DNA of 45,440 nt from Gaiellaceae bacterium (GCA_046714355.1 JBKKAR010000191.1:1-45440), one strand, 5' to 3'; positions 4,230-17,859 are shown, counted from the first letter of the stretch. Numbers and translations: made by a program. The notes: generated from the letters alone by a model not told the origin.

Positions 4230-5375
4230 GTGGGTGCCGAAAGCGTGCCAGATGATGCACCGGCAACCGGGATCTTCCTCGCGCGGCCGGATCCGCTCCC
4301 CCATGACGGCATCCCGCTCGCGGTCAAGGATCTCTTCGACACCGCGGGCCTGACGACGACCTACGGGTCGATCCTCTTCGCCGACCACGTCCCCGACCGA
4401 AGCGCTGAGGTCGTCGTCGGACTGGAAGCCGCCGGTTACGCGAATGTCGGAAAGACGAACCTGCACGAGTTCGCCTACGGCGTGACCTCGCAGAACGCGC
4501 ACTTCGGGACGGTTCCGAACCCTTTAGCGGCGGACCGGATCGCCGGCGGTTCCAGCGGCGGCTCGGCGGCCGCCCTCGCCGCGGGCCTCGCGGACGCTGC
4601 GCTCGGCACCGATTCCGGCGGCTCGATCCGCATCCCAGCCGCCTGCTGCGGCGTCGTCGGCTTCAAGCCGAGCTACGGGCTCGTCCCCCTCGAAGGCGTC
4701 TTCCCACTGGCGCCGACCTTCGATCACGCCGGGCCGATGGCACGGACGGTCGCCGAGTGCACGGCGATGCTCGAAGCTCTCGCGCCCGGCTTCCACTCGA
4801 CCGAAACGCCGGAGCTCGAGGAGCTCAAGGTCGGCGTCGCCTGGCTGGATCGCTGCGATCCGCTCGTCGGCGACCGCCTGCAGGCCGCCGCGAGGCTCTT
4901 GCCCGGCGCCCGGCCGCTCGGGTTCCCGATGGCCGAAGGGATCAGCCCGCTCTTCATGCGCGAGGTCGCCGACGTCCACCGCGACCTCTTCGCCGAGAAC
5001 GCCGACAGCTACGGCGCCAGCGTGCGAGCCAAGGTCGAGCTCTGCCTGGCAATCACCGAAGCGGAGGCCCGCGAAGCCGCCCGGAGGCGAGAGGACTACC
5101 GCGAGGCGGCCGAGAGAGCATTTGCCAACCTCGATCTCCTCCTCGTCCCAAACCTCGCCTTCGTCGCGCCGCTCATCCCGGACGACGAGCGCGACGTGCG
5201 CGAGAAGATCCTCCAGTTCACGTTTCCGTTCAACGCGCTGGGCTGGCCGGCGCTCGCCCTTCCGGCCGGGCCTGCGGAGAACGGGCTCCCGGCCTCGCTC
5301 CAGCTCATCGGACGGCCCGGCGAGGACGCGCTCGTCCTCGCCGCCGGTGAGGCGCTCGAGGCATCCCTCAAATGA
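4230..5375 (+). CDS. amidase-signature family amidase (short, 381 aa)
   Basis: Ser-cisSer-Lys signature elements: LAVKDLFDTAGLTTTYGS, GGSSGGSAAALAAG, GTDSGGSIRIPAACCG. The N-terminal region before the KD motif is shorter than I expect for this family, from memory. gAGAAT box 7 nt upstream of the GTG. Confidence 0.85.
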   Translation: MGAESVPDDAPATGIFLARPDPLPHDGIPLAVKDLFDTAGLTTTYGSILFADHVPDRSAEVVVGLEAAGYANVGKTNLHEFAYGVTSQNAHFGTVPNPLAADRIAGGSSGGSAAALAAGLADAALGTDSGGSIRIPAACCGVVGFKPSYGLVPLEGVFPLAPTFDHAGPMARTVAECTAMLEALAPGFHSTETPELEELKVGVAWLDRCDPLVGDRLQAAARLLPGARPLGFPMAEGISPLFMREVADVHRDLFAENADSYGASVRAKVELCLAITEAEAREAARRREDYREAAERAFANLDLLLVPNLAFVAPLIPDDERDVREKILQFTFPFNALGWPALALPAGPAENGLPASLQLIGRPGEDALVLAAGEALEASLK

Positions 5376-5417
5376 GGGACTCCCTGACCGCACAGAGCTT
5401 GCCGACAACCCTCTTGG

Positions 5418-7094
5418 ATGCCTGCGGTTCGTCTCGCTGCCCTCTGCCTCGCGATGCTCGCACTCGCGCCTGCAGCCGACGCCGCGGTCGCCGCCCCTTC
5501 GAACCTGAGACCTTTCCTGCTTCGCGCAGACGAGGCGCCCGCCCGCGTGTTCCCGCGCACTCCCTCGTTCGCCTGGCGACCGGTGCGCGCCGCGAAGAAG
5601 TACGAGTTCGAGCTGGCGACGCAGAAGAGCTTCACGGACAGCTCCATCGTCTGGACCGGCCCCGCCAAGATGCCGACCGTCGCGATCCCGATCTCCCTCC
5701 CGTGGATGACCGGAACGCCCTACGCCCTCTGGGCCCGCGTCCGCGCGGTGACCTCCAAGGGCGTGTCCCGTTGGACTGCCCCATACGGTTTCAACACCCG
5801 GTGGACGGCGACACCACAGATCCAGCCGAGCGCCGTCGGCCTCGTGCGCTGGGCCCCGATCGAGGGCGCAACGGGCTACAACGTCTGGTTCCTCGGCCCG
5901 AACAAGGTGATCGCCACACGGACCAACGTGGCCGACGAGCGGGAGTACTGGACCTTCCACCAGGACCCGGCCGAGACCAGCGTCGTCCGCTGGCGCGTGC
6001 GCGCCGTCCGGACCCGCGTCGGGACCTCAGCCAACGGGATCCCGAGCGTCTCCTACGGGCCCTGGAGCTCGGTCTACGCGGAGCTGAACACGCCCCTCTC
6101 CGCCTCGCCGCTCGCAGTCTCGACGATGGCGTCCGACACTTCTTCTGACTCGCCCACCGCGTTCCGCCTCATGCCGTCCCTCAGTTACGGCGGCACGGCC
6201 TCGAACGACGGGGCTGCGCGCGAGCTCTACCGCGTCTACGTCTCCACCGACGTCGACTGCGTCAACATCGTCTACCGCGGTTCGATCGTCGGATCGCCGG
6301 CCTGGGCGCCGCGGTCAACCGGGGCGCTGACACTCCCGGCCAACCAGGAGGAGCTGAACAAGGCCCGCGCCGGGTACATCGTGAGCGACGGCAAGCAGGG
6401 CAAGACCTTCGCCATGGACAATTCGACTGTGCTCGAGAACGAGTCGATCACGATTGGCTCCAGCACCGGAGGCACCGGCGGCACGGGCGGTGGAACCGGC
6501 GGCGGAGGCGGGAGCGACGAGCAGATCGAGAAGGTCGAGTCGGCCGCGCTGGCCCCGCCCAGGATCGACCTCTGGGACAACGGCTGGCCCGACAACCGTT
6601 ATTACTGGACCGTTGTCGGAGTCGGCATGCGGGCCGGGCTCGCCGACGCCAACTCGATCGAGTACGTCGACACCGAGGTGCCGCAGGACGTCTGCGCCGC
6701 CGGCCGCATGTCCACCTTCGGCAAGGTGAGCGAGGCGGCTGTGACCACCTCCGGAGCACCGTACGTCACCGGTCTGAGCCCGAGCGGCAACCTCTTCTCG
6801 GCAACACGTACACGCCCCGTCGTCTACGGAACGCCACTCGTGGCCTGGAAGCCGGCGCTCGGCGCCGATCGGTACGAGGTGCAGTGGAGCAAGAAGGCAT
6901 ACCCGTGGACAAAGGCTGGTTCACTCGAGACGCCTGCGACGTCGGCGATGCTCCCCCTCGGCCGCCCCGGCGTCTGGTACTACCGCGTTCGCGGAATCTC
7001 GCTGGCGCTCCCTGTCGGCGGCCGGCAGATGTCGTGGTCGGACCCAGTCGCCATGCGCGTCGCGGCACCACGTTTCCGCATCGTCCGGCGCTAG
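5418..7094 (+). CDS. secreted protein with three FN3-like repeats and a Gly/Thr linker, function unknown
   Basis: Signal peptide MPAVRLAALCLAMLALAPAADA|AV. Three repeats share a W-x-P-x2-GA-x-(Y)-x-(V/F) start and a W/Y-RVRA/G end: FAWRPVRAAKKYEF...LWARVRAV; VRWAPIEGATGYNVW...VRWRVRAV; VAWKPALGADRYEVQW...WYYRVRGI. Confidence 0.8.
   Translation: MPAVRLAALCLAMLALAPAADAAVAAPSNLRPFLLRADEAPARVFPRTPSFAWRPVRAAKKYEFELATQKSFTDSSIVWTGPAKMPTVAIPISLPWMTGTPYALWARVRAVTSKGVSRWTAPYGFNTRWTATPQIQPSAVGLVRWAPIEGATGYNVWFLGPNKVIATRTNVADEREYWTFHQDPAETSVVRWRVRAVRTRVGTSANGIPSVSYGPWSSVYAELNTPLSASPLAVSTMASDTSSDSPTAFRLMPSLSYGGTASNDGAARELYRVYVSTDVDCVNIVYRGSIVGSPAWAPRSTGALTLPANQEELNKARAGYIVSDGKQGKTFAMDNSTVLENESITIGSSTGGTGGTGGGTGGGGGSDEQIEKVESAALAPPRIDLWDNGWPDNRYYWTVVGVGMRAGLADANSIEYVDTEVPQDVCAAGRMSTFGKVSEAAVTTSGAPYVTGLSPSGNLFSATRTRPVVYGTPLVAWKPALGADRYEVQWSKKAYPWTKAGSLETPATSAMLPLGRPGVWYYRVRGISLALPVGGRQMSWSDPVAMRVAAPRFRIVRR
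6462..6515 (+). repeat. in-frame GGN/ACC low-complexity tract (STGGTGGTGGGTGGGGGS)
   Basis: agc acc gga ggc acc ggc ggc acg ggc ggt gga acc ggc ggc gga ggc ggg agc. An imperfect 9-nt periodicity inside the secreted-protein gene. Confidence 0.7.
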
Positions 7095-7106
7095 GGACTG
7101 CCCTAG
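7091..7106. terminator. short palindrome between convergent genes
   Basis: CTAGGG-actg-CCCTAG, a 6-bp stem that includes the TAG stop of the 5418..7094 gene. Only 15 nt separate the convergent stops. Confidence 0.25.
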
Positions 7107-7109
7107 GGG

Positions 7110-7484
7110 CTAGGCCGGCTCGGATGCAGTCTCGGCGTAGAGCCCGCCGACCGCTTCGCCGAGACGACGTTCGATTCGAAAAATCCGGTCGAGGCCCGTA
7201 ACCTCGAGTGTCCGCAAGACGCGCCGATCGTCGGAGACGATCACAAGATCGCCTCCGCGTGCGCGAAACCGAGGCTGGAATCGCAGCAGCAGCCCAAGGG
7301 CCGTCGAGTCGACGAAACCGACCTCGACGAGGTCGACGGCAACCGACCGACCGCCGAGCCGCAGCACCTCCTGGAGCTCGCGTTCGATCTCCGGTGCGGT
7401 CTGCATGTCCGCCTCCCCCGTGACGGACACGACGAAGGTGTCGGCCCCAAGATGCGCCGTCGTTACATCGAACGCCGGTTCCAT
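7110..7484 (-). CDS. STAS-domain anti-sigma-factor antagonist (SpoIIAA/RsbV-like)
   Basis: 124 aa: FVVSVTGEADMQTAPEIERELQEVL...VAVDLVEVGFVDSTALGLLL...LVIVSDDRRVLRTLEVTGLDRIF. Typical STAS layout with a DST phospho-site position. Confidence 0.85.
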   Translation of the reverse strand: MEPAFDVTTAHLGADTFVVSVTGEADMQTAPEIERELQEVLRLGGRSVAVDLVEVGFVDSTALGLLLRFQPRFRARGGDLVIVSDDRRVLRTLEVTGLDRIFRIERRLGEAVGGLYAETASEPA

Positions 7485-7490
7485 GATCGC

Positions 7491-7496
7491 ACGGTA
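7491..7496 (-). promoter_or_regulatory. -10-like TACCGT, 6 nt upstream of the STAS ATG (leaderless candidate)
   Basis: Minus strand reads TACCGT-gcgatc-ATG. Confidence 0.4.
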
Positions 7497-7541
7497 GCGG
7501 CGTCGCCCTGAGCGTTCAGCCCCTGGCGGGTGTGGATTCGC

Positions 7542-8225
7542 TCACACTGGGACGAGCTTGTAGCCGATGCCTCGCACAGTCAAAACCCGGATGGGATTCG
7601 CCGGGTCGGGCTCGATCTTCTGGCGGAGGTTCGAGATGTGGATGTCGCAGGCGCGCTGGTCGCCGACGTAGCTCGAGTCCCAGAGGTCCTGCATGATCTC
7701 CCGCCGGCTGTACACGCGTTCGGGCTCCTGCGCGAGCAGCAGCAGGAGCTTGAACTCGGACGGCGTCAGCCGCTTCGGGTCGCCGTCGACCTTCACCTCG
7801 TGCCGGATCGGATCGAGCTCGAGCCCGCCGACGCGGATGACGCTCGCCGCACCGGAGCGGTCGAGCTCACGCCGTCTGATGATCGCCCGGATCCGACCGA
7901 GCAGCTCTGCCATCGAGAATGGCTTCGTGACGTAGTCGTCGGCTCCGATCTCGAGGCCGAGGACCCTGTCGAGCTCAGCGCCCTTCGCAGTGAGCATGAT
8001 GACCGGCACGGCGCTCTCCGCACGCAGCCGGCGGCAGACCTCCATGCCAGACATGCCCGGAAGCATGAGGTCGAGGACGACGACATCGTACGTCTCTCCC
8101 AGCGCGGCGCGAAGACCCGCCTCGCCGTCCGCCGCCGCGTCGACGTCGAACCCTTCGGTCCGGAGCGCGTAGACGACTGCGTCCCGAATCGCCGGCTCGT
8201 CGTCGACGATGAGGACGTGGCTCAC
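7542..8225 (-). CDS. OmpR/PhoB-family response regulator
   Basis: Receiver domain (HVLIVDDEP...VVVLDLMLPGMSGMEV...PVIMLTAKG...DDYVTKPF) plus a winged-helix output (LTPSEFKLLLLLA...VLTVRGIGYKL). Confidence 0.95.
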   Translation of the reverse strand: MSHVLIVDDEPAIRDAVVYALRTEGFDVDAAADGEAGLRAALGETYDVVVLDLMLPGMSGMEVCRRLRAESAVPVIMLTAKGAELDRVLGLEIGADDYVTKPFSMAELLGRIRAIIRRRELDRSGAASVIRVGGLELDPIRHEVKVDGDPKRLTPSEFKLLLLLAQEPERVYSRREIMQDLWDSSYVGDQRACDIHISNLRQKIEPDPANPIRVLTVRGIGYKLVPV

Positions 8226-9355
8226 TGGCGCATCAGGCTCGCCGCGTGCGGCAGCCTCAGCCGAACCACGGATCCCGCTCCGACGGTCGACTCGAGCTCG
8301 ACTTCGCCCCCCAGCGCGTCCACCGCGGCGCCCACGATCGCAAGTCCGAGCCCGAAGCCGGAATTGGCGCCCACCGGACCGCTGTAGAACCGGTCGAAGA
8401 CGCGCGACCGGTCGGCGGCCGCGATACCCCGGCCTGTGTCGGAGACCGTGATCTCTACTGAGCCTTCACGCTCCTCGGCGGCGAGGACGATCCGCCCGAG
8501 GCTCGTGTTCTTCGCAGCGTTCTCGGCCAGATTCGACAAGGCCTGCTCGAGCAGCTGGCGGTTCGTCACGACTGCCACCTGCGGCCGACAGGAGACCACG
8601 ACCTCGACCCCCTCCGGCGGCCGCAGCCTCGAGGCTGTCTCGGAGAGAAGGACGTCGAGCCCGACGAGCTCGTCTCGCGGCGCCTCAACCCCCATCTGGG
8701 CGCGGGCGAGGATCAGCAGCGCGCGAGCCAGACGCGTGAGACGAGCGGACGCGCGCTCGATGTGGGCGAGGAAGACGTCCCGCTCGTCGCTGTCCTTCGC
8801 GCCGGCCTGAAGAACCTCGATCGCGCTCACGATCGCCGCCAGGGGACTTTGGAGCTCATGGGCTGCGTTGGTGACGAAGTCCCGCTCTGCACGCTCCTGA
8901 CGTTCCTGCAACGTGACGTCCTGGAAGAGCGAGAGAGCGCCGAGGGCGTGTCCCGCCGAATCTCGAACCGGCGTGGTGGCGACTTCGATCACGACTGGCG
9001 TCCCATCAGCAGCTGTGAGCTGAATCCGTTCGCCGCTGACGGCCTCGCCGGTACGAAGGGTCCGTTCGAGCGGAAGCTCGTCGAGAAGATGACGGTGACC
9101 GGAGGTCTCTTTCTCGACGCCGAGGATGGTCAGGGCTCGATCGTTGATCATCAGGACCTTCCCGTCGGGATCGACGATCACGAGGCCGGCCGGCATGTTT
9201 TCGACGACCGCCGCCAGGCGCGCGCGTTCCTCCTCGAGCTCCGCCGTCCGTACGACAACGCGTGCTTCGAGAGCCGCGGCGAAGCGCCGCATCGCATCCT
9301 CAGCGGCAGCCTGCTTGCCAAGCGCGGTCTCTCTCAAGTCTCGTTCCTTCCCCAC
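8222..9355 (-). CDS. soluble PAS-domain sensor histidine kinase
   Basis: No TM segment. Coiled-coil head, PAS-like region (VENMPAGLVIVDPDGKVLMIND...), H-box FVTNAAHELQSPL, N/G boxes (NLAENAAKNT, DTGRGI, GFGLGLAIV). 4-nt overlap with the regulator gene. Start could be the TTG 18 nt downstream. Confidence 0.9.
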   Translation of the reverse strand: MGKERDLRETALGKQAAAEDAMRRFAAALEARVVVRTAELEEERARLAAVVENMPAGLVIVDPDGKVLMINDRALTILGVEKETSGHRHLLDELPLERTLRTGEAVSGERIQLTAADGTPVVIEVATTPVRDSAGHALGALSLFQDVTLQERQERAERDFVTNAAHELQSPLAAIVSAIEVLQAGAKDSDERDVFLAHIERASARLTRLARALLILARAQMGVEAPRDELVGLDVLLSETASRLRPPEGVEVVVSCRPQVAVVTNRQLLEQALSNLAENAAKNTSLGRIVLAAEEREGSVEITVSDTGRGIAAADRSRVFDRFYSGPVGANSGFGLGLAIVGAAVDALGGEVELESTVGAGSVVRLRLPHAASLMRQ

Positions 9356-10558: not shown

Positions 10559-12042
10559 TGGATGAGCTCCTGCGCCGCCTGAGGACCCCAGGTCCCGGCT
10601 GCGTAGTTCGGGAACGACGGCCGGTCCCGGCGCCAGGCGGCCACGATGGAATCGACGAGTGCCCACTGCTCCTCGATCTCGTCGGCACGCGTGAAGAGGG
10701 TGGCGTCGCCGAGCATGGCGTCGAGGATCAGCCGTTCGTACGCCTCGGGCAGACCGGTACGGAAGGCTCCGCCGTAGAGGAAATCCATGTGCACCGTGCG
10801 GACCCGCATTCCCTCGCCCGGGACCTTGGCGCCGATCGCGAGCGACACGCCCTCGTTGGGCTGGATATGGACGATCAACAGGTTAGGCCGGAGCTCGCTC
10901 GCGTCCTCGAACAGCGGATGCGGAACGCGCTTGAACTGGATCGCGATCGTCGTCTCCCGGCGCGGCAGCCGCTTGCCCGTACGAATGTAGAAGGGCGTGT
11001 CCGCCCAGCGCCAGTTGTCCACGTGGAGCTTCGCGGCGACGAACGTCTGCGTCTCGGAGCCGCCCGCGACACCTTCCTCCTCCCGGTAGCCCACCGCCGG
11101 CTCGCCCTCGATGAACCCGGGGCCGTACTGCCCGCGCACGACCTCGGTCGGCGCCGGGGTTCCGAGCGCCTTCAACACCTTGAGCTTCTCGTTCCGGACC
11201 GAGTCGGCGGTGAAGTCGATCGGCGGCTCCATCCCCGTCAGGGCGACGAGCTGCAGCAGGTGGTTCTGGAACACGTCGCGGACCGCGCCGGCCTGCTCGT
11301 AAAAGCCGGCGCGGTTCTCGATTCCGATCGACTCGGCGACCGTGATCTGCACGTGGTCGATGAACTGGCGGTTCCAGACGGGCTCGAAGATGCCGTTGGC
11401 GAACCGCAGCGCCAGGAGGTTCTGGACGGTGTCCTTCCCGAGGTAGTGGTCGATGCGGAAGATCTCGTCCTCGGTGAAATGCCGCGCGAGCAGCTCGTTG
11501 AGCTCGCGGGCCGACTGGAGGTCTTGGCCGAACGGCTTCTCGATGATCAGCCTCGTCCAGCCGGTCGTGGTGCGGCGCTCCCCCAGTTCCTCGACGAGCT
11601 TGGGCATCGCGGTGGGCGGGACCGCGAGGTAGTAGACGCGGTTGCCGCGAGTGCCAAACTCGCCGTCCAGGTCGGTCAGGGATCGTGAGATGCCGTCCTC
11701 GTCGTCATCCTCGTCGGCGAACTCGGTCGCGCGGTAGCGGGTGTGGCTCGCCAGCCGCTCCCAGACCTCCTGCCGGAACTCGTCGCGGCCGAACTCGCGG
11801 ACAGCGGTCTCCATCGCGGCGACGAAGTCCTCGGAGGCCTGCTCCGTGCGGGCGACGCCAAGGACGGCGAACTGCTCCGGCAACAGGTCGCGGAAGGCGA
11901 GCGCGTAGAGCGCCGGGAAGATCTTGCGGCGCGTCAGGTCTCCCGAAGCGCCGAAGATCGTCAGGACGCAGGGCTCCGAGCGGCGTCGGAGCTCGAGCCC
12001 CTCGGCGAGCGGGTTCTCAGTCGCGACGGACTGCATGTCCAC
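10546..12042 (-). CDS. zwf: glucose-6-phosphate 1-dehydrogenase
   Basis: FGASGDLTRRKIFPALY dinucleotide fold, RIDHYLGKDTVQN active-site motif, 498 aa. The start may be a few codons downstream; it overlaps the gnd end. Confidence 0.95.
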   Translation of the reverse strand: MDMQSVATENPLAEGLELRRRSEPCVLTIFGASGDLTRRKIFPALYALAFRDLLPEQFAVLGVARTEQASEDFVAAMETAVREFGRDEFRQEVWERLASHTRYRATEFADEDDDEDGISRSLTDLDGEFGTRGNRVYYLAVPPTAMPKLVEELGERRTTTGWTRLIIEKPFGQDLQSARELNELLARHFTEDEIFRIDHYLGKDTVQNLLALRFANGIFEPVWNRQFIDHVQITVAESIGIENRAGFYEQAGAVRDVFQNHLLQLVALTGMEPPIDFTADSVRNEKLKVLKALGTPAPTEVVRGQYGPGFIEGEPAVGYREEEGVAGGSETQTFVAAKLHVDNWRWADTPFYIRTGKRLPRRETTIAIQFKRVPHPLFEDASELRPNLLIVHIQPNEGVSLAIGAKVPGEGMRVRTVHMDFLYGGAFRTGLPEAYERLILDAMLGDATLFTRADEIEEQWALVDSIVAAWRRDRPSFPNYAAGTWGPQAAQELIQWHR

Positions 12043-12883
12043 CGAACTGGTTCCTCAGTGCCGCGTTGACTTTGGCGGCAAAGGACTCGTCCTGTCGCGA
12101 CGCGAAGCGGGCGTAGAGCGCGGCTGTGATCACGTGGAGGGGCACCGCGGTGTCGATCGCTTGCTCGACGGTCCAGCGACCTTCCCCCGAGTCCTCGACG
12201 TAGCCCCGGATGCCCTCCAGGGCCGGGTCTTCCGCGAGCGCCTTGGCCAGAAGGTCGAGCAGCCAGCTCCGGACGACGGAACCGTGGCGCCACATCTCTG
12301 CGACGGCGGCGAGATCCAGGTCGAACTCCGAGGCCTGCATCAGATCGAAGCCCTCGGCGTAGGCCTGCATCAGCCCGTATTCGACGCCGTTGTGGACCAT
12401 CTTCACGAAGTGCCCTGCGCCCGAGGGGCCGACATGGGCATAGCCGCCATCCGGTGCCAGCGCTTCGAACACCGGCCGAAGGCGGCCGATCGGCTCGGGG
12501 TCGCCGCCCGCCATGAGCGCGAACCCCTCGCGCAGCCCCCAGATCCCGCCCGAGACGCCCACGTCGAGGAAGTGGACGCCCTTCTCGGCGCTTTCGGCGG
12601 CGCGACGTTGCGAGTCGCGGAAGTTCGAGTTGCCGCCGTCGACGATCGTGTCACCGGCGTCGAGGATTCCGAGGAGGCCCTGGAACGTGCTCTCGGTGAC
12701 TTCGCCGGCGGGAACCATCATCCAGACGTGGTGCGGCGAGTCCAGCTGCTGCGCGAGCTCGACGAGCGATGCCGCCGTCGACTCGACGTTGGGGTCGTAG
12801 GTCTTGACGTCGTGTCCGGCCTGGCCGAGGCGCTCGGTCATCCCGGAGCCCATCCGGCCGAGCCCCACCATCCCGAGCTGCAC
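12017..12883 (-). CDS. gnd: 6-phosphogluconate dehydrogenase, short (YqeC/GndA-like, ~288 aa) form
   Basis: VQLGMVGLGRMGSGM Rossmann start, GGNSNF, FLDVGVSGG, HFVKMVHNGVEYG, C-terminal RNQFGGH. GTG at 12883. The track ORF extension to 13156 runs into IS sequence. Confidence 0.85.
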   Translation of the reverse strand: MQLGMVGLGRMGSGMTERLGQAGHDVKTYDPNVESTAASLVELAQQLDSPHHVWMMVPAGEVTESTFQGLLGILDAGDTIVDGGNSNFRDSQRRAAESAEKGVHFLDVGVSGGIWGLREGFALMAGGDPEPIGRLRPVFEALAPDGGYAHVGPSGAGHFVKMVHNGVEYGLMQAYAEGFDLMQASEFDLDLAAVAEMWRHGSVVRSWLLDLLAKALAEDPALEGIRGYVEDSGEGRWTVEQAIDTAVPLHVITAALYARFASRQDESFAAKVNAALRNQFGGHAVRRD

Positions 12884-12886
12884 TAG
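12883..12886. repeat. CTAG target-site duplication, left copy
   Basis: CTAG directly abuts IR-L. An identical CTAG abuts IR-R at 16558-16561. Confidence 0.65.
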
Positions 12887-12915
12887 GAGGGCTTGGCGCT
12901 TCGATTGGCGGAACG
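12887..12915 (+). repeat. terminal inverted repeat IR-L
   Basis: GAGGGCTTGGCG CTTCGATTGGCG GAACG. The middle 12 nt look like an internal duplication of the TTGGCG core relative to IR-R. Confidence 0.7.
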
Positions 12916-13019
12916 GTACATAGCGTCGATCTTCGCAGGAGCGTCGGGCCTCGGAAGCGCAAGACGGAGGCGAAGTGAGTACGAAACGGCAGGTAGCAGC
13001 ACGAAAGGCCGAACGAGAA

Positions 13020-13038
13020 CAGGGGCTCACCGCCCCTG
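13020..13038 (-). terminator. hairpin downstream of transposase stop
   Basis: CAGGGG-ctcaccg-CCCCTG, 6-bp stem. On the minus strand it is followed by TTCTCGTT. Lies 27 nt after the transposase stop. Confidence 0.35.
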
Positions 13039-13064
13039 CCCTTCTGATCGAGAGAACGAGCGGG

Positions 13065-14264
13065 CTACGCCGCGAGTGGGACGGCTCGCGCTCGGGCGAG
13101 CGTCTGAGCGAGTGTGGCGAGCATGGTGAGGTCGGTGTGGAGTGCCACGCGCTCAAGTCCCCGGACGCGGAGCGGCTTCAATCCGTACTCGTTCTTGAGC
13201 CGCCCGAAGGCTCGCTCGACCGAGGCGCGGCCTCGGTAGAGGTCGCCCCATCGCTTCGACTCGCGGGGGACGAGGGGGTGGAGGCGGGAGGCTTTGATCC
13301 AGACGCTCGCGGGCGCGCAGGCGAGAAGTTCCAACTGTCCGCGCTTGGCAGCCGCAGCATGTGGGCAGCGCCACTTCGTCGCGTTCCGCTTCACGTCGGC
13401 TCCGGCGAACGTCCATGTGCCGTGTTCGCACTCGGGAGCATGGTGGTCGCCGCGCTTGACGCCGGTTGTCTTGCGGAGCGGGATGATCGGGAGCGCCCCG
13501 GCCTGTTCGACAGCCTCGTAGACGGGGTTCACGTCGTAGCCCTTGTCGAGGGCGACCGTCTCGGGCTGGAACTTCCGTTCGCGGACGCGCTGCAAGAGGT
13601 CGTCGGCGAGGCTCGATTCGTGGGCGCAGGCCGTTTCGACTCGCTAGGCGACCGGAAGGTCGGTGCGGGCGCAGACGGCGGCGCTCAGCTTGTACCCATA
13701 GAACCCGCCGCCCTTCCGAGTGCTGATTGCGGAGCGGTGCCCCCAGGAGGCGTCCGGGTCGGAGAACCGCTCGCGCTCCGGGCCGTTCTTGCTGAGGTAC
13801 CGCTGCCCGTTCGCGTAGGCGGGGAGGTCGGAGGCGTCGATGGCGAGGTCGCGCCCGTACTCGGGAAGCTGGACGCGGAGGGCGGCGGTCACGCGGTCGA
13901 GGCAGTCGGCGAGTGCGCCCGAGTGCTCGCGGAGCTTGCGGGCGAAGCGGTAGCAGGCCCAATGCGAGGGCGTCCCGCCGAGAACATCGGCCAGCGCCCG
14001 GTGCTCGGCGATCAGGCGGGCCGTCCGCGTCCACGTCGGGAGCGCATACAGGCTCTTGACGAGGCAGGCTCCGACCATCGTGCGAGCGCCGTAGCCTTTC
14101 TGTCCTGTCTCTCGAAGCGCGTCAAGCGCCGAGATCAGGTGTGCAATCTCGGGGGAATCGAGAACTTGAGAGAGAGAGTTTCGGCGACTCCGTTGGGTCG
14201 CCCTGTTACCCTGATTCCTGCCAAGCGAGTTGCCTCTCGTTTGGTCATGGCCCCGGAAGTTCAC
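13065..14264 (-). pseudogene. IS5/InsH-like DDE transposase interrupted by an in-frame TAG (13646-13644)
   Basis: Track ORFs 13644..14438 and 13065..13595 are in the same frame, separated by one TAG (...CARTDLPVA*RVETACAHE...). N-terminal InsH-type region (GQKGYGARTMVGACLVKSLYALPTWTRTARL). DDE elements LAIDASD, VALDKGYD, RASVERAFGRLKNEYG. The start is uncertain: either GTG 14264, or ATG 14248 in another frame. Confidence 0.8.
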
Positions 14265-14285
14265 GCTTCGCGGGGCCTCTTTTTT
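14249..14285 (+). terminator. canonical hairpin plus T-run at the transposase 5' end
   Basis: GGCCCCG GAAG ttcacg CTTC g CGGGGCC followed by TCTTTTTTC: an 11-bp interrupted stem and a T6 run, which is rare in this G+C-rich DNA. On the minus strand the same hairpin ends directly at ATG 14248. Confidence 0.5.
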
Positions 14286-14346
14286 CCTATCTACAAGCCA
14301 AAGTATGACCAGGGCATCGGACGGCACAGCCCTGTCCAAACGGGAC

Positions 14347-15135
14347 TCAGTCGAAGTCCGAGGCGAACGTCTCCACGAACGCGCGCACCCAGGCATAGAC
14401 CTCCAGAAGTGCGTAAGCACTGAGCCATCGCTCGCCAAAGGCTATGTCGAAGGCCGGGTAGCCGTGCATCTGCACCTGCGGGTTCGGCCCGCTCGGGGAG
14501 AGCAGGATGCGGGCGATTTCTGCGCCTTCTTTCAGGCGGCGTCCTCCGGCGATCTTGACCTGCTCGAACCCGAGATGTTCACCGTGTCCCGGCCCGGCGT
14601 CGTCGTTGACCACGAACGTCAGGCCGGGCCAGGGCGGGCCTTGCATGAAGCCGTTGGTCGGGTGGACGATGCGGTGTTTTGTCGGTGTTGGAAAGCCACG
14701 CGAGGATGGTGAGGACGTGGTTCTTCGCGCTCTGCCCAGCATTGTGTGGCTGTGCCTGCTCGATGAGTGCCCGATGCTGTGGAGTGATCCGTCCGAGCCG
14801 CTTCTCAACGTCGCCTGCAACTTCGGCCTCGGTGACGTAGATCGGGAAGCGGGTGTGTTTATTCGGTCGCTCGCCGTTCAGGAGGACGAGCTGCCAGAGG
14901 AGGTGATCGAGCGCGGCTCGGGTGTTCTGGGTGAAGTCGCCGAGGATGGTGCCGAGGCGCAGGGGAGGCTTATCTCGGATGTGGATGCGAAAGACGTACT
15001 CGCTGGACTCAGGCTCGAACTCGCCGACGATTTCGTAGGGGTGGGTCGCAAGAAGGCGGCGGTTTCCTGATCGAGCGTTTCCAGGTGTTCCCATGCCCGG
15101 TCGAGTTTCGCCCGGACTCCCTCTAGCCACGGCAC
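14347..15135 (-). pseudogene. passenger gene of unknown function broken by two frameshifts
   Basis: Three overlapping track ORFs (14878..15135, 14579..15130, 14347..14820) read as one protein if 1 nt is adjusted near 15045-15056 (ETAAFL|ATHPYEIV) and in the T4/A4 run at 14677-14680 (WLSNTDK|HRIVHPTNGF). Contains NTRAALDH (an R-x4-H motif). Confidence 0.65.
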
Positions 15136-15345
15136 GCGCCGACGCTACTGCACTTGGGGCGGCAGTCTGACGGCGAAGGCGGGGCGGACGTTAGTCCGTG
15201 CGTCCGTCTCGTCCTCGTGGAGGGGACACCCGGCTACGCGCCGCACTCTTCGTTGTCCATCGGTTTCTCATTGGCGGCGAGCACAACGCCGAGGCTGGCG
15301 TGAACCGGCCCGGACTGCGTACAGCTTTGCAGCCGGACGAACTGC

Positions 15346-16011
15346 CTACGACTTCGCGGTCGAGGCGCGCTTTGGCTGCTCGAAAATCCGTTCGCCGGTC
15401 GTGCTGAACGCGGCAATCCTGAGATTCTCGCTCGAAGGAGGAGGGTCGAAGATGTACGTGTTATCGACGACCGCGGTCTCTGCAACAACGTCGCCCGCTT
15501 CGTCAACAAACGCGACCCTCGCCACTCCGTCAGCTGCGAACCCCGCGCTTCTGTAGACAGTCAACATCCTCGGCGGGCCTTCGTCGCTAGCGCCCGGACT
15601 GTGAAATACGGTGAAGTCGAGGATCGGCCGAACGGCGGACGGGAATTGCGGCGAGCAGCCGATCTGACTGAACGACTCGGTCGTCGGCAGTGCCGAGCCA
15701 GTGGCAAAACACTGCGCGTCGATTCGGTAAAAGGCGTGGCCTTTCCGCTGTCCCAGGATCAGGATTCGCCCGATCTTGCGGCCATCATCGGCCAGTCTCT
15801 GTAACACGAATTCATCACTGGGGAGGGCGGCCCGGTATGGCTTCCCTGGATTGCTCACGCGATTGAGCGCACCCGGGTCAGCTGCCGGATGTTGAGCACT
15901 CGGCCCCTCGGGCTGGGCAGAGCCGCATCCCGCAAGCGCGAGCGCCGCCAACGCGATGCTGAGTGTTTTGCTGCGCGGCCGTGTAGTAGGACGCCGTGTC
16001 AAAGGACCCAA
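15346..16011 (-). CDS. putative lipoprotein, unknown function
   Basis: Positively charged n-region followed by lipobox LALAGC|GS. TTG start at 16011 overlaps the upstream ORF by 13 nt. Lower G+C than core genes. Confidence 0.65.
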   Translation of the reverse strand: MGPLTRRPTTRPRSKTLSIALAALALAGCGSAQPEGPSAQHPAADPGALNRVSNPGKPYRAALPSDEFVLQRLADDGRKIGRILILGQRKGHAFYRIDAQCFATGSALPTTESFSQIGCSPQFPSAVRPILDFTVFHSPGASDEGPPRMLTVYRSAGFAADGVARVAFVDEAGDVVAETAVVDNTYIFDPPPSSENLRIAAFSTTGERIFEQPKRASTAKS

Positions 16012-16379
16012 ATGTCGCCTCTAATGTACGACTGGTCGCCGCTCTGGTACCCGAGGTACGGCCTGTTGTAGCCACCGCATGGCCCTGAGGCCGTCGACAT
16101 GTAGTAGGTATCTGGGCCGGGAACAGTTTGATAGCACCAGTCGCTCGCCGAGTAGCTGAAGATTGCGAACGACACATAGCCGCCGCTCCCCACCCGAAGT
16201 TGGTACAGGTACCAGTAGTTCGTCGGGCCTGCCACCCAAGTGTTGACGGTAGGTGTGACATAGTTCCACCCCCACCAGGCGTGGGCTGGCTCCCACTGCC
16301 ACGGGGCGTCTGCAGCTGCCGTTGAAGGCGCGCCGAGGAACGCCAGGCAGACCGCGAAAACGAGTATGAATCGCCTCAC
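15999..16379 (-). CDS. small secreted Trp/Tyr-rich protein, unknown function
   Basis: Signal peptide MRRFILVFAVCLAFLGAPSTAAADA. The ~100-aa mature part is rich in W/Y/G (PWQWEPAHAWWGWNY, NYWYLYQLRVGSGGY) and has two Cys. Hand count of line 16021-16080 gives about 60% G+C. Confidence 0.6.
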   Translation of the reverse strand: MRRFILVFAVCLAFLGAPSTAAADAPWQWEPAHAWWGWNYVTPTVNTWVAGPTNYWYLYQLRVGSGGYVSFAIFSYSASDWCYQTVPGPDTYYMSTASGPCGGYNRPYLGYQSGDQSYIRGDIWVL

Positions 16380-16488
16380 GTCAACGGAAGCTTACTGGAT
16401 CATGCAGGAGGCGCAAGCTGACCTGTGATGAGGCGAAACCGCACTTGGCGAACTGAGTATTGCGTTGGGTAAGGCCGCTCCGCTCTTG

Positions 16489-16512
16489 GGGTAGCCGCCC
16501 GTCCAGCTACCC
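16489..16512 (-). terminator. hairpin in the non-coding right end of the element
   Basis: GGGTAGC-cgcccgtcca-GCTACCC, 7-bp stem, 45 nt downstream of the pgi stop on the minus strand. No U-tract. Confidence 0.3.
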
Positions 16513-16540
16513 TGAGAACCGTATGGCTAGACGGCTACAG

Positions 16541-16557
16541 CGTTCCGCCAAACCCTC
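16541..16557 (-). repeat. terminal inverted repeat IR-R
   Basis: The reverse complement reads GAGGGTTTGGCGGAACG, matching IR-L at 16/17 once the 12-nt insertion is gapped. Confidence 0.7.
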
Positions 16558-16561
16558 CTAG
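16558..16561. repeat. CTAG target-site duplication, right copy (contains the pgi stop codon)
   Basis: CTAG directly abuts IR-R. Its CTA is the complement of the pgi TAG stop. Confidence 0.65.
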
Positions 16562-17859
16562 AGCTCCTCCAGCCGGACACGGACGATCTTCCGGCCCCGC
16601 TCTTGCAGCGCCTGATAGTCGCCGTCCGCCTGGGCGGCGATCAGCGTCCGGAAGCCGAACTTCCGTCCCGGGATCCGGAGCTCTTCGCCGAAGTCGTCCA
16701 CGACCTGGACGAACAGCCCCGTGTCGGGCCCGCCCTTGTGGAGCTGACCCGTCGAGTGGAGATACCGCGGCCCCAGTCCGACGGAGACGGCTGCGCCGGT
16801 CTCGCGGACACGCCGGACGAGCGGTTCGAGCTCCGCCTCCCGCGCAGGGTCGACGAACGCCTGGATGGCCACGTACCGCCCCGGTCGCGCCTCGGCAAGC
16901 AGTTCCCCCAGTGTCCCTTCGGGACCTCGCTCAGTGACTGTCACTGAGCCACGCCCCGAAAGGACGGCCTCGGTCTTGTCTTTCGCCGCCTGCACGTCCG
17001 GCTGATCGAAGGGATTGATCTCGAGGATCGAGCCGGCGACGGCGGTCGCGAACTCCCAGCGGAAGAACTCCTGCCCGAGCTCATGCGGATCGGGCAGCCG
17101 GACGTTGGGCGTCTCGCCGCCGGCTCGCACCGGAACTATGCCCTTGCCTTCCTTCCCGGTGGACTCGGCGACGAGCTGCTCGACCCAGAGCCCGAAGTCG
17201 CCGTCCACCTGGAGGAACTGCTGCTCGGCGAGCCAGAGCCCGAGCTCGAGGCCCGGGTTTTCCTCCGAGAGTCGGCACGCGTCGCGCATCTCCTCGGCCC
17301 GGTCGAGCAGACCGACGACGTCGGCGCCCATTAGCGCCGCCGGCAGCAGGCCGAACACGGAAAGGGCGGAGTAGCGGCCGCCGATCGTCGGCTCGCCGTA
17401 GAAGACGTCCTCCGAGAGCTCTGCGAGCGGCGAGCCAGGGTCGGTGACGGCCGCGAAGCGGCCGCCCCTGTCGCGGAAGTAGTCCGCGTGCGAGCGAGTC
17501 TCGATCGTGGTGCCGGATTTTGACGCGGCGATGAAGAGCGTCCGTTTGACGTCGACCGCCTCCTCAAGCCGGCGGATCGCGGTCGGATGGGTCGTGTCGA
17601 GAACGTGGAAGCGCTCTGCGGCGCAGGCGCGGCGCATGACCTCGGGCGCGAGGCTCGATCCACCCATCCCGAGCAGCACGACGTCGTCGACGTCGGCCTC
17701 GAGCCTCGTCGCGAACTCGAGCAGCTCGTGCGCCCGCTCGCGCATCCGCGCGGGCTCGTCCAGCCACCCGAGCCAGTGCGCTTCGTCAGCGCCGGTCCAG
17801 ACGGACGGGTCGCGCTCCCAGATCCGCTCGACCAGCTCGGCGGGTGCGAGGGTGCTCAA
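16558..17859 (-). CDS. pgi: glucose-6-phosphate isomerase (short Tal-associated type)
   Basis: LGMGGSSLAPEV, FIAASKSGTTIETRS, GGRYSALS motifs. Start placed at TTG 17859, overlapping the tal TGA (TTGA). The N-terminal 106 aa of the track ORF lie inside tal in another frame. Confidence 0.85.
   Translation of the reverse strand: MSTLAPAELVERIWERDPSVWTGADEAHWLGWLDEPARMRERAHELLEFATRLEADVDDVVLLGMGGSSLAPEVMRRACAAERFHVLDTTHPTAIRRLEEAVDVKRTLFIAASKSGTTIETRSHADYFRDRGGRFAAVTDPGSPLAELSEDVFYGEPTIGGRYSALSVFGLLPAALMGADVVGLLDRAEEMRDACRLSEENPGLELGLWLAEQQFLQVDGDFGLWVEQLVAESTGKEGKGIVPVRAGGETPNVRLPDPHELGQEFFRWEFATAVAGSILEINPFDQPDVQAAKDKTEAVLSGRGSVTVTERGPEGTLGELLAEARPGRYVAIQAFVDPAREAELEPLVRRVRETGAAVSVGLGPRYLHSTGQLHKGGPDTGLFVQVVDDFGEELRIPGRKFGFRTLIAAQADGDYQALQERGRKIVRVRLEEL

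Follow-up and report, generated by a model that had tools for sequence, protein, structure and literature searches.

The question raised by the pentose phosphate operon of one Gaiellaceae bacterium is what lies between its pgi and gnd genes. In the 45,440-nt stretch analysed here (the window, to which as a whole, and not to the element, all coordinates given without a contig name refer), rpiB, tal and pgi are followed by 3,671 bp (12887-16557) before gnd, zwf and opcA resume, and direct reading shows this unit to lie between two CTAGs. An earlier note on this DNA had placed an IS5-like unit at the overlap of the pgi stop and the gnd start with CTAG on both sides, and that position is confirmed. 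We conclude that 12887-16557 is very probably one transposable element of the transporter insertion sequence (tIS) type, with a single DDE transposase gene and passenger genes inside one pair of terminal inverted repeats. The TnCentral preprint defines tIS as insertion sequence (IS)-like elements with passenger genes in one inverted repeat pair, a class that was listed in 2021 as restricted to the IS1595 and IS66 families (10.1101/2021.05.26.445724). The insertion itself is an ordinary event.

Ends and target site of the inserted unit

On the plus strand, the CTAG at 12883-12886 is followed by GAGGGCTTGGCGCTTCGATTGGCGGAACG, and the reverse complement of 16541-16561 reads CTAGGAGGGTTTGGCGGAACG, i.e., CTAG and then GAGGGTTTGGCGGAACG. 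With the 12-nt CTTCGATTGGCG of the left end (GAGGGCTTGGCG-CTTCGATTGGCG-GAACG) set aside, 16 of 17 bases match between the two ends, as had been claimed, and a repeat finder independently recovered the same inverted pair. A pattern search for the 12-mer GAGGGYTTGGCG with at most one mismatch returned two occurrences in the 45-kb window, which are the two element ends in inverted orientation; about 0.84 scattered matches per window are expected by chance, so this count alone says little. The terminal repeats are decisive because of the position and orientation of the pair and because the same ends recur in seven other complete elements. One could still suppose, given the chance expectation for the 12-mer and the shortness and palindromic nature of CTAG, that the repeats and CTAGs are accidental and the 3.7 kb an old lineage-specific intergenic island. 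That explanation retains next to no probability and is already refuted by 38 relatives with no insert at the junction and by the seven further elements, which share these ends, their asymmetry and the CTAG flanks and sit at unrelated genomic sites.

Excision of the unit together with one CTAG yields GGAGGAGCTCTAGTGCAGCTCGGGATGGTG, and the reconstructed junction is GGAGGAGCTCTAGTGCAGCTCGGG. This restores the overlap of the pgi TAG with the gnd GTG, whose first G is the G of the left CTAG, in agreement with the reconstruction proposed earlier. The coupling was also said to be in the style of the rest of the operon, and at least the tal/pgi junction is likewise a stop/start overlap (TTGA), with the probable pgi start TTG at 17859 overlapping the tal stop. 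In 38 related contigs (seven from genomes and 31 from metagenomes), nothing is inserted and the stop of pgi overlaps the start of gnd. Among reference genomes, the gnd relatives, which belong to Gaiellaceae and 'uncultured Actinomycetes' metagenome-assembled genomes (MAGs) and share at most 72% protein identity with the window gene, all have the overlap ATGA, GTGA or TGATG. The metagenome junctions were found with a degenerate pattern for the reconstructed junction; all 31 contigs matched are uninterrupted and read TGATG or TAGTG. A single CTAG is present at the uninterrupted junction in seven contigs (L117, L093, L106, L095, L116, L100 and L104), and L100 and L104 read GGAGGAGCTCTAGTGCAA. Relatives, in which the earlier note had asked for an empty site to be looked for, thus show this junction architecture and a natural CTAG in it.

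The insertion site owes its CTAG solely to the overlap of the pgi stop TAG with the gnd start GTG (CTC-TAG-TG). The window contains 27 CTAGs where 59-134 are expected, an at least two-fold under-representation, and about half of those outside the element are the TAG stops of open reading frames (ORFs) of at least 200 amino acids (aa). As CTAG is scarce and so often marks the end of a long ORF, an element targeting it is steered towards gene ends, and the landing at a gene boundary follows from target choice. Two of the elements described below have comparable sites, namely a TAG stop (pth) in the case of L002 and a CTAGTG start in that of L001. Example CTAG sites in the window are 4156, 7091, 24124, 27653, 29102, 37080, 39939 and 41619. 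At 7091-7113, three CTAGs are clustered in a palindrome (CTAGGGACTGCCCTAGGGGCTAG) just past an ORF ending at 7094, possibly a terminator hairpin or a further favoured target.

Related elements and the cargo slot

The repaired transposase has 4,135 homologues, mostly of 370-375 aa, and those with an organism name are from Gaiellaceae. The contigs of ten transposase homologues were examined, and eight complete elements, the window copy and seven others, were picked from long contigs (Table 1). The seven come from Gaiellaceae-type MAGs and metagenomes and all read CTAG/GAGGG…CCCTC/CTAG, so that CTAG flanks eight of eight elements. Other copies of the transposase gene with different ends would have counted against the proposed boundaries; the copies found have the same ends and the same flanks. 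Together with the uninterrupted junctions of relatives, this means that both refuting checks proposed in the earlier note turned out in its favour.

The two ends of the element differ. At 12887-12915, the 3' (transposase-distal) end holds two tandem TTGGCG(G/A)AACG-type motifs spaced 12 nt apart, and the doubled motif (TTGGCG(G/A)AACG or CTAGCGAAACG, with the same spacing) is found in all seven aligned 3' ends. L005 has a perfect tandem (CTAGCGAAACGA/CTAGCGAAACG), and the doubling is also seen in L124, L125, L126 and L127. The opposite, 5' end carries one copy of the motif, followed by CTGTAGGCGTC…CCAT.CGG. The 12 nt that the earlier note took for an insertion in the left repeat are indeed present, not as a lesion of the window copy but as an asymmetry conserved across the family. 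The tandem motifs are presumed to be transposase-binding sites, the doubling at the 3' end being most simply read as one additional site. A DDE_Tnp_1 transposase would then bind the GAGGG…TTGGCG(G/A)AACG ends, at one motif on the 5' side and two tandem motifs on the 3' side, and join them to staggered cuts at CTAG, whose repair would duplicate the target, as the ends and the duplication suggest.

Block comparison showed four conserved parts, namely a 95-bp 5' block, a leader of about 100-125 bp, the transposase gene and a 3' tail of about 180 bp. In the window, the 5' block runs from GAGGGTTTGGCGGAACG (16557-16541) through CTGTAGCCGTC…CCATACGG…TACCC…TTACCC, after which similarity between elements ends and the cargo starts; an alignment of six 5' ends has 39 invariant columns in the first 95. 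The leader consists, in order, of an invariant CCGTCCG (14324), an A-rich stretch, a hairpin CCCCGCGAAGC…CGGGG (14275-14251), a Shine-Dalgarno-like GAGAGG and a TTG start (14224-14222). Between the 5' block and the leader, the segments are unrelated from element to element, while the cores are 72-80% identical. All eight complete elements carry 1.1-3 kb of cargo in this slot, with differing content. The earlier note had left the size of the unit unexplained; it is 3.67 kb long because three passenger genes sit between the 5' block and the transposase leader, a trait common to the whole family.

Table 1. Features of the window and complete elements on other contigs
Feature	Contig	Coordinates	Strand	Details
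gnd, short-type 6-phosphogluconate dehydrogenase	window	12017-12883	-	288 aa, intact; GTG start 12883-12881
CTAG, gnd-side copy of duplicated target	window	12883-12886		Direct reading; CTAG flanks eight of eight complete elements
Terminal repeat, transposase-distal (3') end	window	12887-12915	-	GAGGGCTTGGCG-CTTCGATTGGCG-GAACG; alignment of seven 3' ends
3' non-coding tail	window	12916-13064	-	G+C-rich hairpin 13015-13041 directly past transposase stop
Transposase pseudogene, DDE_Tnp_1 type	window	13065-14224	-	tblastn alignment 14204-13068; Pfam; NCBIfam
Segment with 11-codon in-frame insertion, transposase Cys motif	window	13317-13361	-	WRCPTGEC in relatives, WRCPHAAAAKRGQLELLAC here (tblastn against P0001)
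Nonsense TAG (TGG to TAG), transposase	window	13644-13646	-	Trp in P0001, P0023, P0006 and P0043 (…DLPVAW-RVETA…)
Transposase leader	window	14222-14324	-	Alignment of seven elements
Cargo A, pseudogene	window	14347-15135	-	262-aa protein of uncharacterised family (motif WLSNTDKHR); repaired translation and tblastn
Cargo B, intact	window	15346-16011	-	221-aa lipoprotein-like protein; 444 homologues (E ≤ 1e-3), most of them near 200 aa
Cargo C	window	15999-16379	-	126-aa ORF, signal-peptide-like N-terminus (MRRFILVFAVCLAFLGAPSTAAADA…); ORF list
Conserved 5' end block, about 95 bp	window	16463-16557	-	Alignment of six 5' ends and blastn block analysis
CTAG, pgi-side copy of duplicated target	window	16558-16561		Direct reading; pgi stop TAG at 16560-16558 (-)
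pgi, glucose-6-phosphate isomerase	window	16558-17859	-	Pfam PGI, NCBIfam PRK09533; stop TAG 16558-16560
Complete element, 3,135 bp	L001	3207-6341		Cargo: DUF6192 protein and 148-aa ORF
Complete element, 4,678 bp	L002	810-5487		Cargo: seven small ORFs and cargo A homologue
Complete element, 2,681 bp	L005	2710-5390		Cargo: SocA_Panacea protein and 101-aa ORF
Complete element, 3,083 bp	L120	4214-7296		Cargo: N6_N4 methyltransferase
Complete element, 2,886 bp	L122	4420-7305		Cargo: PIN protein and 250-aa ORF
Complete element, 3,193 bp	L125	5136-8328		Cargo (5360-6816): dCTP-deaminase-like gene, then PADLOC HEC-09 protein (E = 3e-23)
Complete element, 3,328 bp	L126	4970-8297		Cargo: 600-aa methyltransferase fused to Mrr/NA-iREase-type domain

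At least three of the eight elements have defence-type cargo: L125, with HEC-09, which PADLOC lists as a candidate defence system, and L120 and L126, with restriction-modification-type methyltransferases. The PIN and Panacea genes belong to toxin-antitoxin-like pairs. In the window, repaired cargo A matches proteins of 256-268 aa over 98-99% of its length at no more than 64% identity, and had no sequence match in Pfam, PADLOC or the PDB. Its AlphaFold model is confident (a predicted local distance difference test score of 94); a Foldseek search of the PDB returned nothing below E = 0.2, and one of BFVD returned one unnamed viral protein (A0A514TZW7, E = 3e-14). Members of the cargo A family (invariant …WLSNTDKH…) were also found at L002 3057-3836, L124 482-1288 and L123 6001-6774; they sit upstream or downstream of this transposase and near other mobile-element genes. 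The partial element L124 has its homologue not in the usual slot but past the transposase stop, before the 3' end. A match to the Rfam family RAGATH-16 inside cargo A (14544-14615, minus strand) was the only one in the Rfam scan and, at 26.5 bits against a gathering threshold of 65.6 (E = 0.063), was treated as chance. Cargo B has a weak lipobox/LppK-type N-terminus, and its start overlaps the end of cargo C, which had no match in the family scans and is presumably a real gene.

Did these genes arrive with the element? The outer CTAG duplication and the order of cargo A then transposase, which the window shares with L002, suggest that the 3.67-kb unit would transpose as a whole. Alternatively, an ordinary IS of about 1.5 kb without cargo first landed on the CTAG, and the 2.1-kb cargo (14347-16462) entered it later in this lineage, through recombination or another insertion, so that the 3.67 kb never moved together. 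The G+C content of the cargo (0.60-0.64, versus 0.67-0.72 for the transposase part and the flanks) fits this sequence of events, as does the difference in cargo between all elements whose cores are 72-80% identical, which implies that cargo is exchanged in the family. L119, a contig of 1,559 bp, ends close to the cargo junction, about 169 bp upstream of the transposase gene, and suggests that assemblies break there, as assemblers do where copies differ. Conversely, none of the eight complete elements examined is free of cargo, the cargo A-then-transposase order is common to L002, L003 and L004, so that at least this part travelled with the core, and the cargo borders have neither an internal terminal repeat nor a duplication. 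We therefore consider late entry of the cargo unlikely.

Accessory genes moved by IS ends also recall compound transposons such as Tn5 and Tn10, but these need two complete IS copies, whereas the window unit has one transposase gene and the terminal motif only at its two outer ends. Another composite origin, in which the DNA between a full IS and a short solo end or miniature inverted-repeat transposable element (MITE) of that family is chromosomal or foreign and the outer ends are used together, is very improbable. It draws on a 159-bp MITE-like unit with similar GAGGGCTTG ends adjoining the L002 element, and on L127, where a 5'-type end is opposite in orientation to the transposase gene; the family thus does make solo or rearranged ends. 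However, the window unit has only one transposase gene and two terminal repeats, its 95-bp 5' block has no inner inverted repeat, and the same single-block architecture is found in all eight elements, while the L002 MITE lacks the subterminal sequence of the 5' block and has TA flanks. A search for internal terminal repeats, the sign of a composite or nested element, found none.

The MITE-like unit (L002 5506-5664) lies past the 3' end of the L002 element, 18 bp away, has the inverted ends GAGGGCTTGACGGAAC… and GAGGGCTTGGCGGAGCG… flanked by TA and not CTAG, and possibly represents a non-autonomous form derived from a related IS. In L127 (6189-8313), the 5'-type end (CTAG/GAGGGTTTGGCAAAACGCTGTGGCC), located at 6189, faces away from the transposase gene at 7001-8119, whose own 3' end is at 8309. 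This arrangement suggests an inversion or two abutting elements, and a ThsB_TIR-like gene lies nearby.

Transposase affinities and decay of the window copy

Having established the extent of the element, we turn to its transposase. The window gene product is 80% identical, in one frame (tblastn), to the intact 372-aa protein P0001 and has matches to the Pfam families DDE_Tnp_1, DDE_Tnp_1_6 and, below its cut-off, DUF772. A DDE_Tnp_1 catalytic domain (PF01609, cut-off of 23 bits) was found both in P0001 (88.1 bits) and in the C-terminal fragment of the window protein (52.2 bits). The C-terminal DDE_Tnp_1_6 domain passed its cut-off (29.7-30.8 versus 25.1 bits) and DUF772 fell just short (20.5-21.5 versus 23.1 bits). 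The best curated IS-family model was that of IS1182 (NF033551), with 134-147 bits against a cut-off of 270. All four IS5 models also remained below their cut-offs for intact P0001 and P0023 and for the repaired window protein: NF033581 (63-71 versus 140 bits), NF033580 (48-57 versus 110), NF033579 (45-52 versus 140) and NF033578 (28-29 versus 275). The transposase is thus nearest to IS1182 and then to IS5 and, by these curated tests, a member of neither family. The earlier description as IS5/InsH-like holds at the superfamily level but not for the IS5 family, as no IS5 model was passed and IS1182 scored best.

The resemblance to IS1182 extends to both halves of the window gene and to the intact relatives, for all of which it gave the best model, and includes DDE_Tnp_1_6, a DUF772-like N-terminal region and short terminal inverted repeats. 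Conversely, the present transposase has about 372 aa against a model of 488 positions, whose middle region is missing, and the element has passenger genes. In a plasmid collection we found only distant transposases of at most 28% identity, the nearest IS1182-annotated proteins included, and one fragment of 83 aa in Iamia. IS5 is a single-gene element of about 1.2 kb. With it, the present elements share the DDE_Tnp_1 transposase, the short terminal inverted repeats and insertion at CTAG flanked by CTAG, and several relatives carry the JGI annotation 'IS5 family transposase'. They follow the IS5-group YTAR target, with CTAG at all eight elements and a single CTAG at uninterrupted junctions, although a TA duplication would read alike. 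They differ from the compact IS5 form (about 1-1.5 kb, one gene) in their size of 2.7-4.7 kb with cargo, the window element having 3,671 bp and the others 2,681-4,678 bp with one to eight extra ORFs each, and in their asymmetric ends with a doubled motif at one. CTAG has been described as a consistent IS5 target duplication (PMC10379815). The likeness to tIS lies in the single transposase gene that shares one inverted repeat pair with non-transposition genes and in the target duplication around the whole unit, both of which were found here; the differences are the IS1182/IS5-type transposase and the presence of cargo, in a fixed slot, in all eight complete copies.

The window copy has decayed. 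Its transposase gene has a nonsense codon at a position where P0012 also differs from the other relatives, an in-frame insertion of 11 codons in the Cys motif, and the family TTG start one base out of frame with the body of the gene (frame check on pairwise alignments). Cargo A lacks a C in a C-run near 15040 and has an extra A in an A-run near 14678, so that tblastn returned three high-scoring segment pairs in frames -3, -2 and -3. The earlier note had envisaged a repaired transposase; a simple repair does not suffice for the three lesions of this gene, to which come the two frameshifts of the cargo gene. The nonsense codon and the out-of-frame start leave the window copy unable to move by itself, while its intact ends mean that an intact copy elsewhere could still mobilise it in trans. 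The change from TGG to TAG also created a new CTAG at 13644-13647, a potential target site inside the element.

Several observations weigh against parts of our reading. Both cargo A frameshifts lie in homopolymer runs and are possibly long-read sequencing errors, although no neighbouring gene of the operon is damaged, which speaks for genuine decay limited to the element. The flanks are as the earlier note claimed, but a 2-bp TA duplication around an element with G...C termini would give the identical sequence to a 4-bp CTAG duplication, since the target is palindromic; the transposition chemistry, the binding sites and the length of the duplication are accordingly read from sequence features and may differ from what we propose. 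The exact 11-mer CTCTAGTGCAG predicted for the empty site was not seen among the related junctions, the closest contig, L117, being only 75-81% identical, and the empty sites include no near-identical strain without the insert; an exact look-up of the window gnd protein, which sought the same strain without the element, found nothing on record. As to recent activity in this genome, the window has no second copy of the element, and none exceeding 81% protein identity was found anywhere. Finally, cargo-free copies of about 1.5 kb may be common in the family, given that the eight elements were drawn from long contigs.

Consequences for gnd and for the family

GGAGGAG precedes the gnd start by 5 nt in all uninterrupted junctions and falls within the 3' end of pgi. 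In the window, the sequence before the gnd GTG is now …GCCAAGCCCTCCTAGTG. Because GGAGGAG stayed with pgi, 3.7 kb away, gnd has lost its Shine-Dalgarno sequence and its translational coupling to pgi. The earlier claim that both the pgi stop and the gnd start were preserved is thus literally true, but does not extend to the Shine-Dalgarno sequence and the coupling. As the earlier note had said, gnd-zwf-opcA is now 3.7 kb away from rpiB-tal-pgi. The G+C-rich hairpin at 13015-13041 (minus strand GGGCAGGGGCGGUGAGCCCCUGUUCUC) is present in both the minimum free energy and the centroid folds and may be a terminator with a weak U-tract. A promoter scan of the element found no promoter-like site, and hence no evidence for an outward promoter driving gnd. 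Since all element genes run in the direction of the operon and the scan detected no promoter facing outward, gnd transcription has no visible source other than read-through.

After the insertion, gnd would thus have kept its GTG while losing the Shine-Dalgarno sequence and the stop/start coupling and coming to lie behind a hairpin. Lower expression of gnd is probable on these grounds, and possibly also of zwf and opcA. Speaking against such an effect, the hairpin was not called by a consensus terminator scan, and gnd, zwf and opcA are all intact; the gnd protein (MQLGMVGLGRMG…) matches NCBIfam NF007161 over positions 1-287 with 427.7 bits (cut-off of 271), as well as Pfam NAD_binding_2 and 6PGD. 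The 3' tail region as a whole folds no better than shuffled sequences (z = 0.54), and the three terminator-like sites that the scan reported in the element are not more than in shuffles.

The element very probably belongs to an IS1182/IS5-like clade of Gaiellaceae-type actinobacterial MAGs with an exchangeable cargo slot. Literature searches for IS1182 or IS5 elements with passenger genes returned nothing on this family, which is apparently undescribed, and viral contigs scanned for the transposase held no relatives. Carriage of cargo appears to be the norm in the family. We tentatively propose, as a possibility that falls somewhat short of probable, that the window element represents, in decayed form, an undescribed Gaiellales-type IS1182/IS5-like tIS family. 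In such a family, most or all copies would carry exchangeable cargo in a fixed slot (restriction-modification methyltransferases, toxin-antitoxin-like pairs, a dCTP-deaminase-like gene with HEC-09, and the recurrent 262-aa protein), and CTAG specificity would steer insertions onto TAG stops and spare coding sequence. Its transposase lineage lies outside those listed with tIS in 2021 (10.1101/2021.05.26.445724), and its hosts are uncultured Gaiellaceae-type soil actinobacteria. Automated annotation would report only a 'transposase' here and miss the boundaries of the element and the mobile status of the neighbouring genes.

At this locus, a tightly coupled pentose phosphate operon was cut exactly at a stop/start overlap with no coding sequence destroyed, which shows how CTAG targeting lands insertions between genes. 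If the proposal is true, defence and addiction genes of an uncultured soil lineage would have in this family a small carrier with a single transposase, and cargo A, which encodes the recurrent 262-aa protein, might be a new defence gene or specify an accessory factor of the element.

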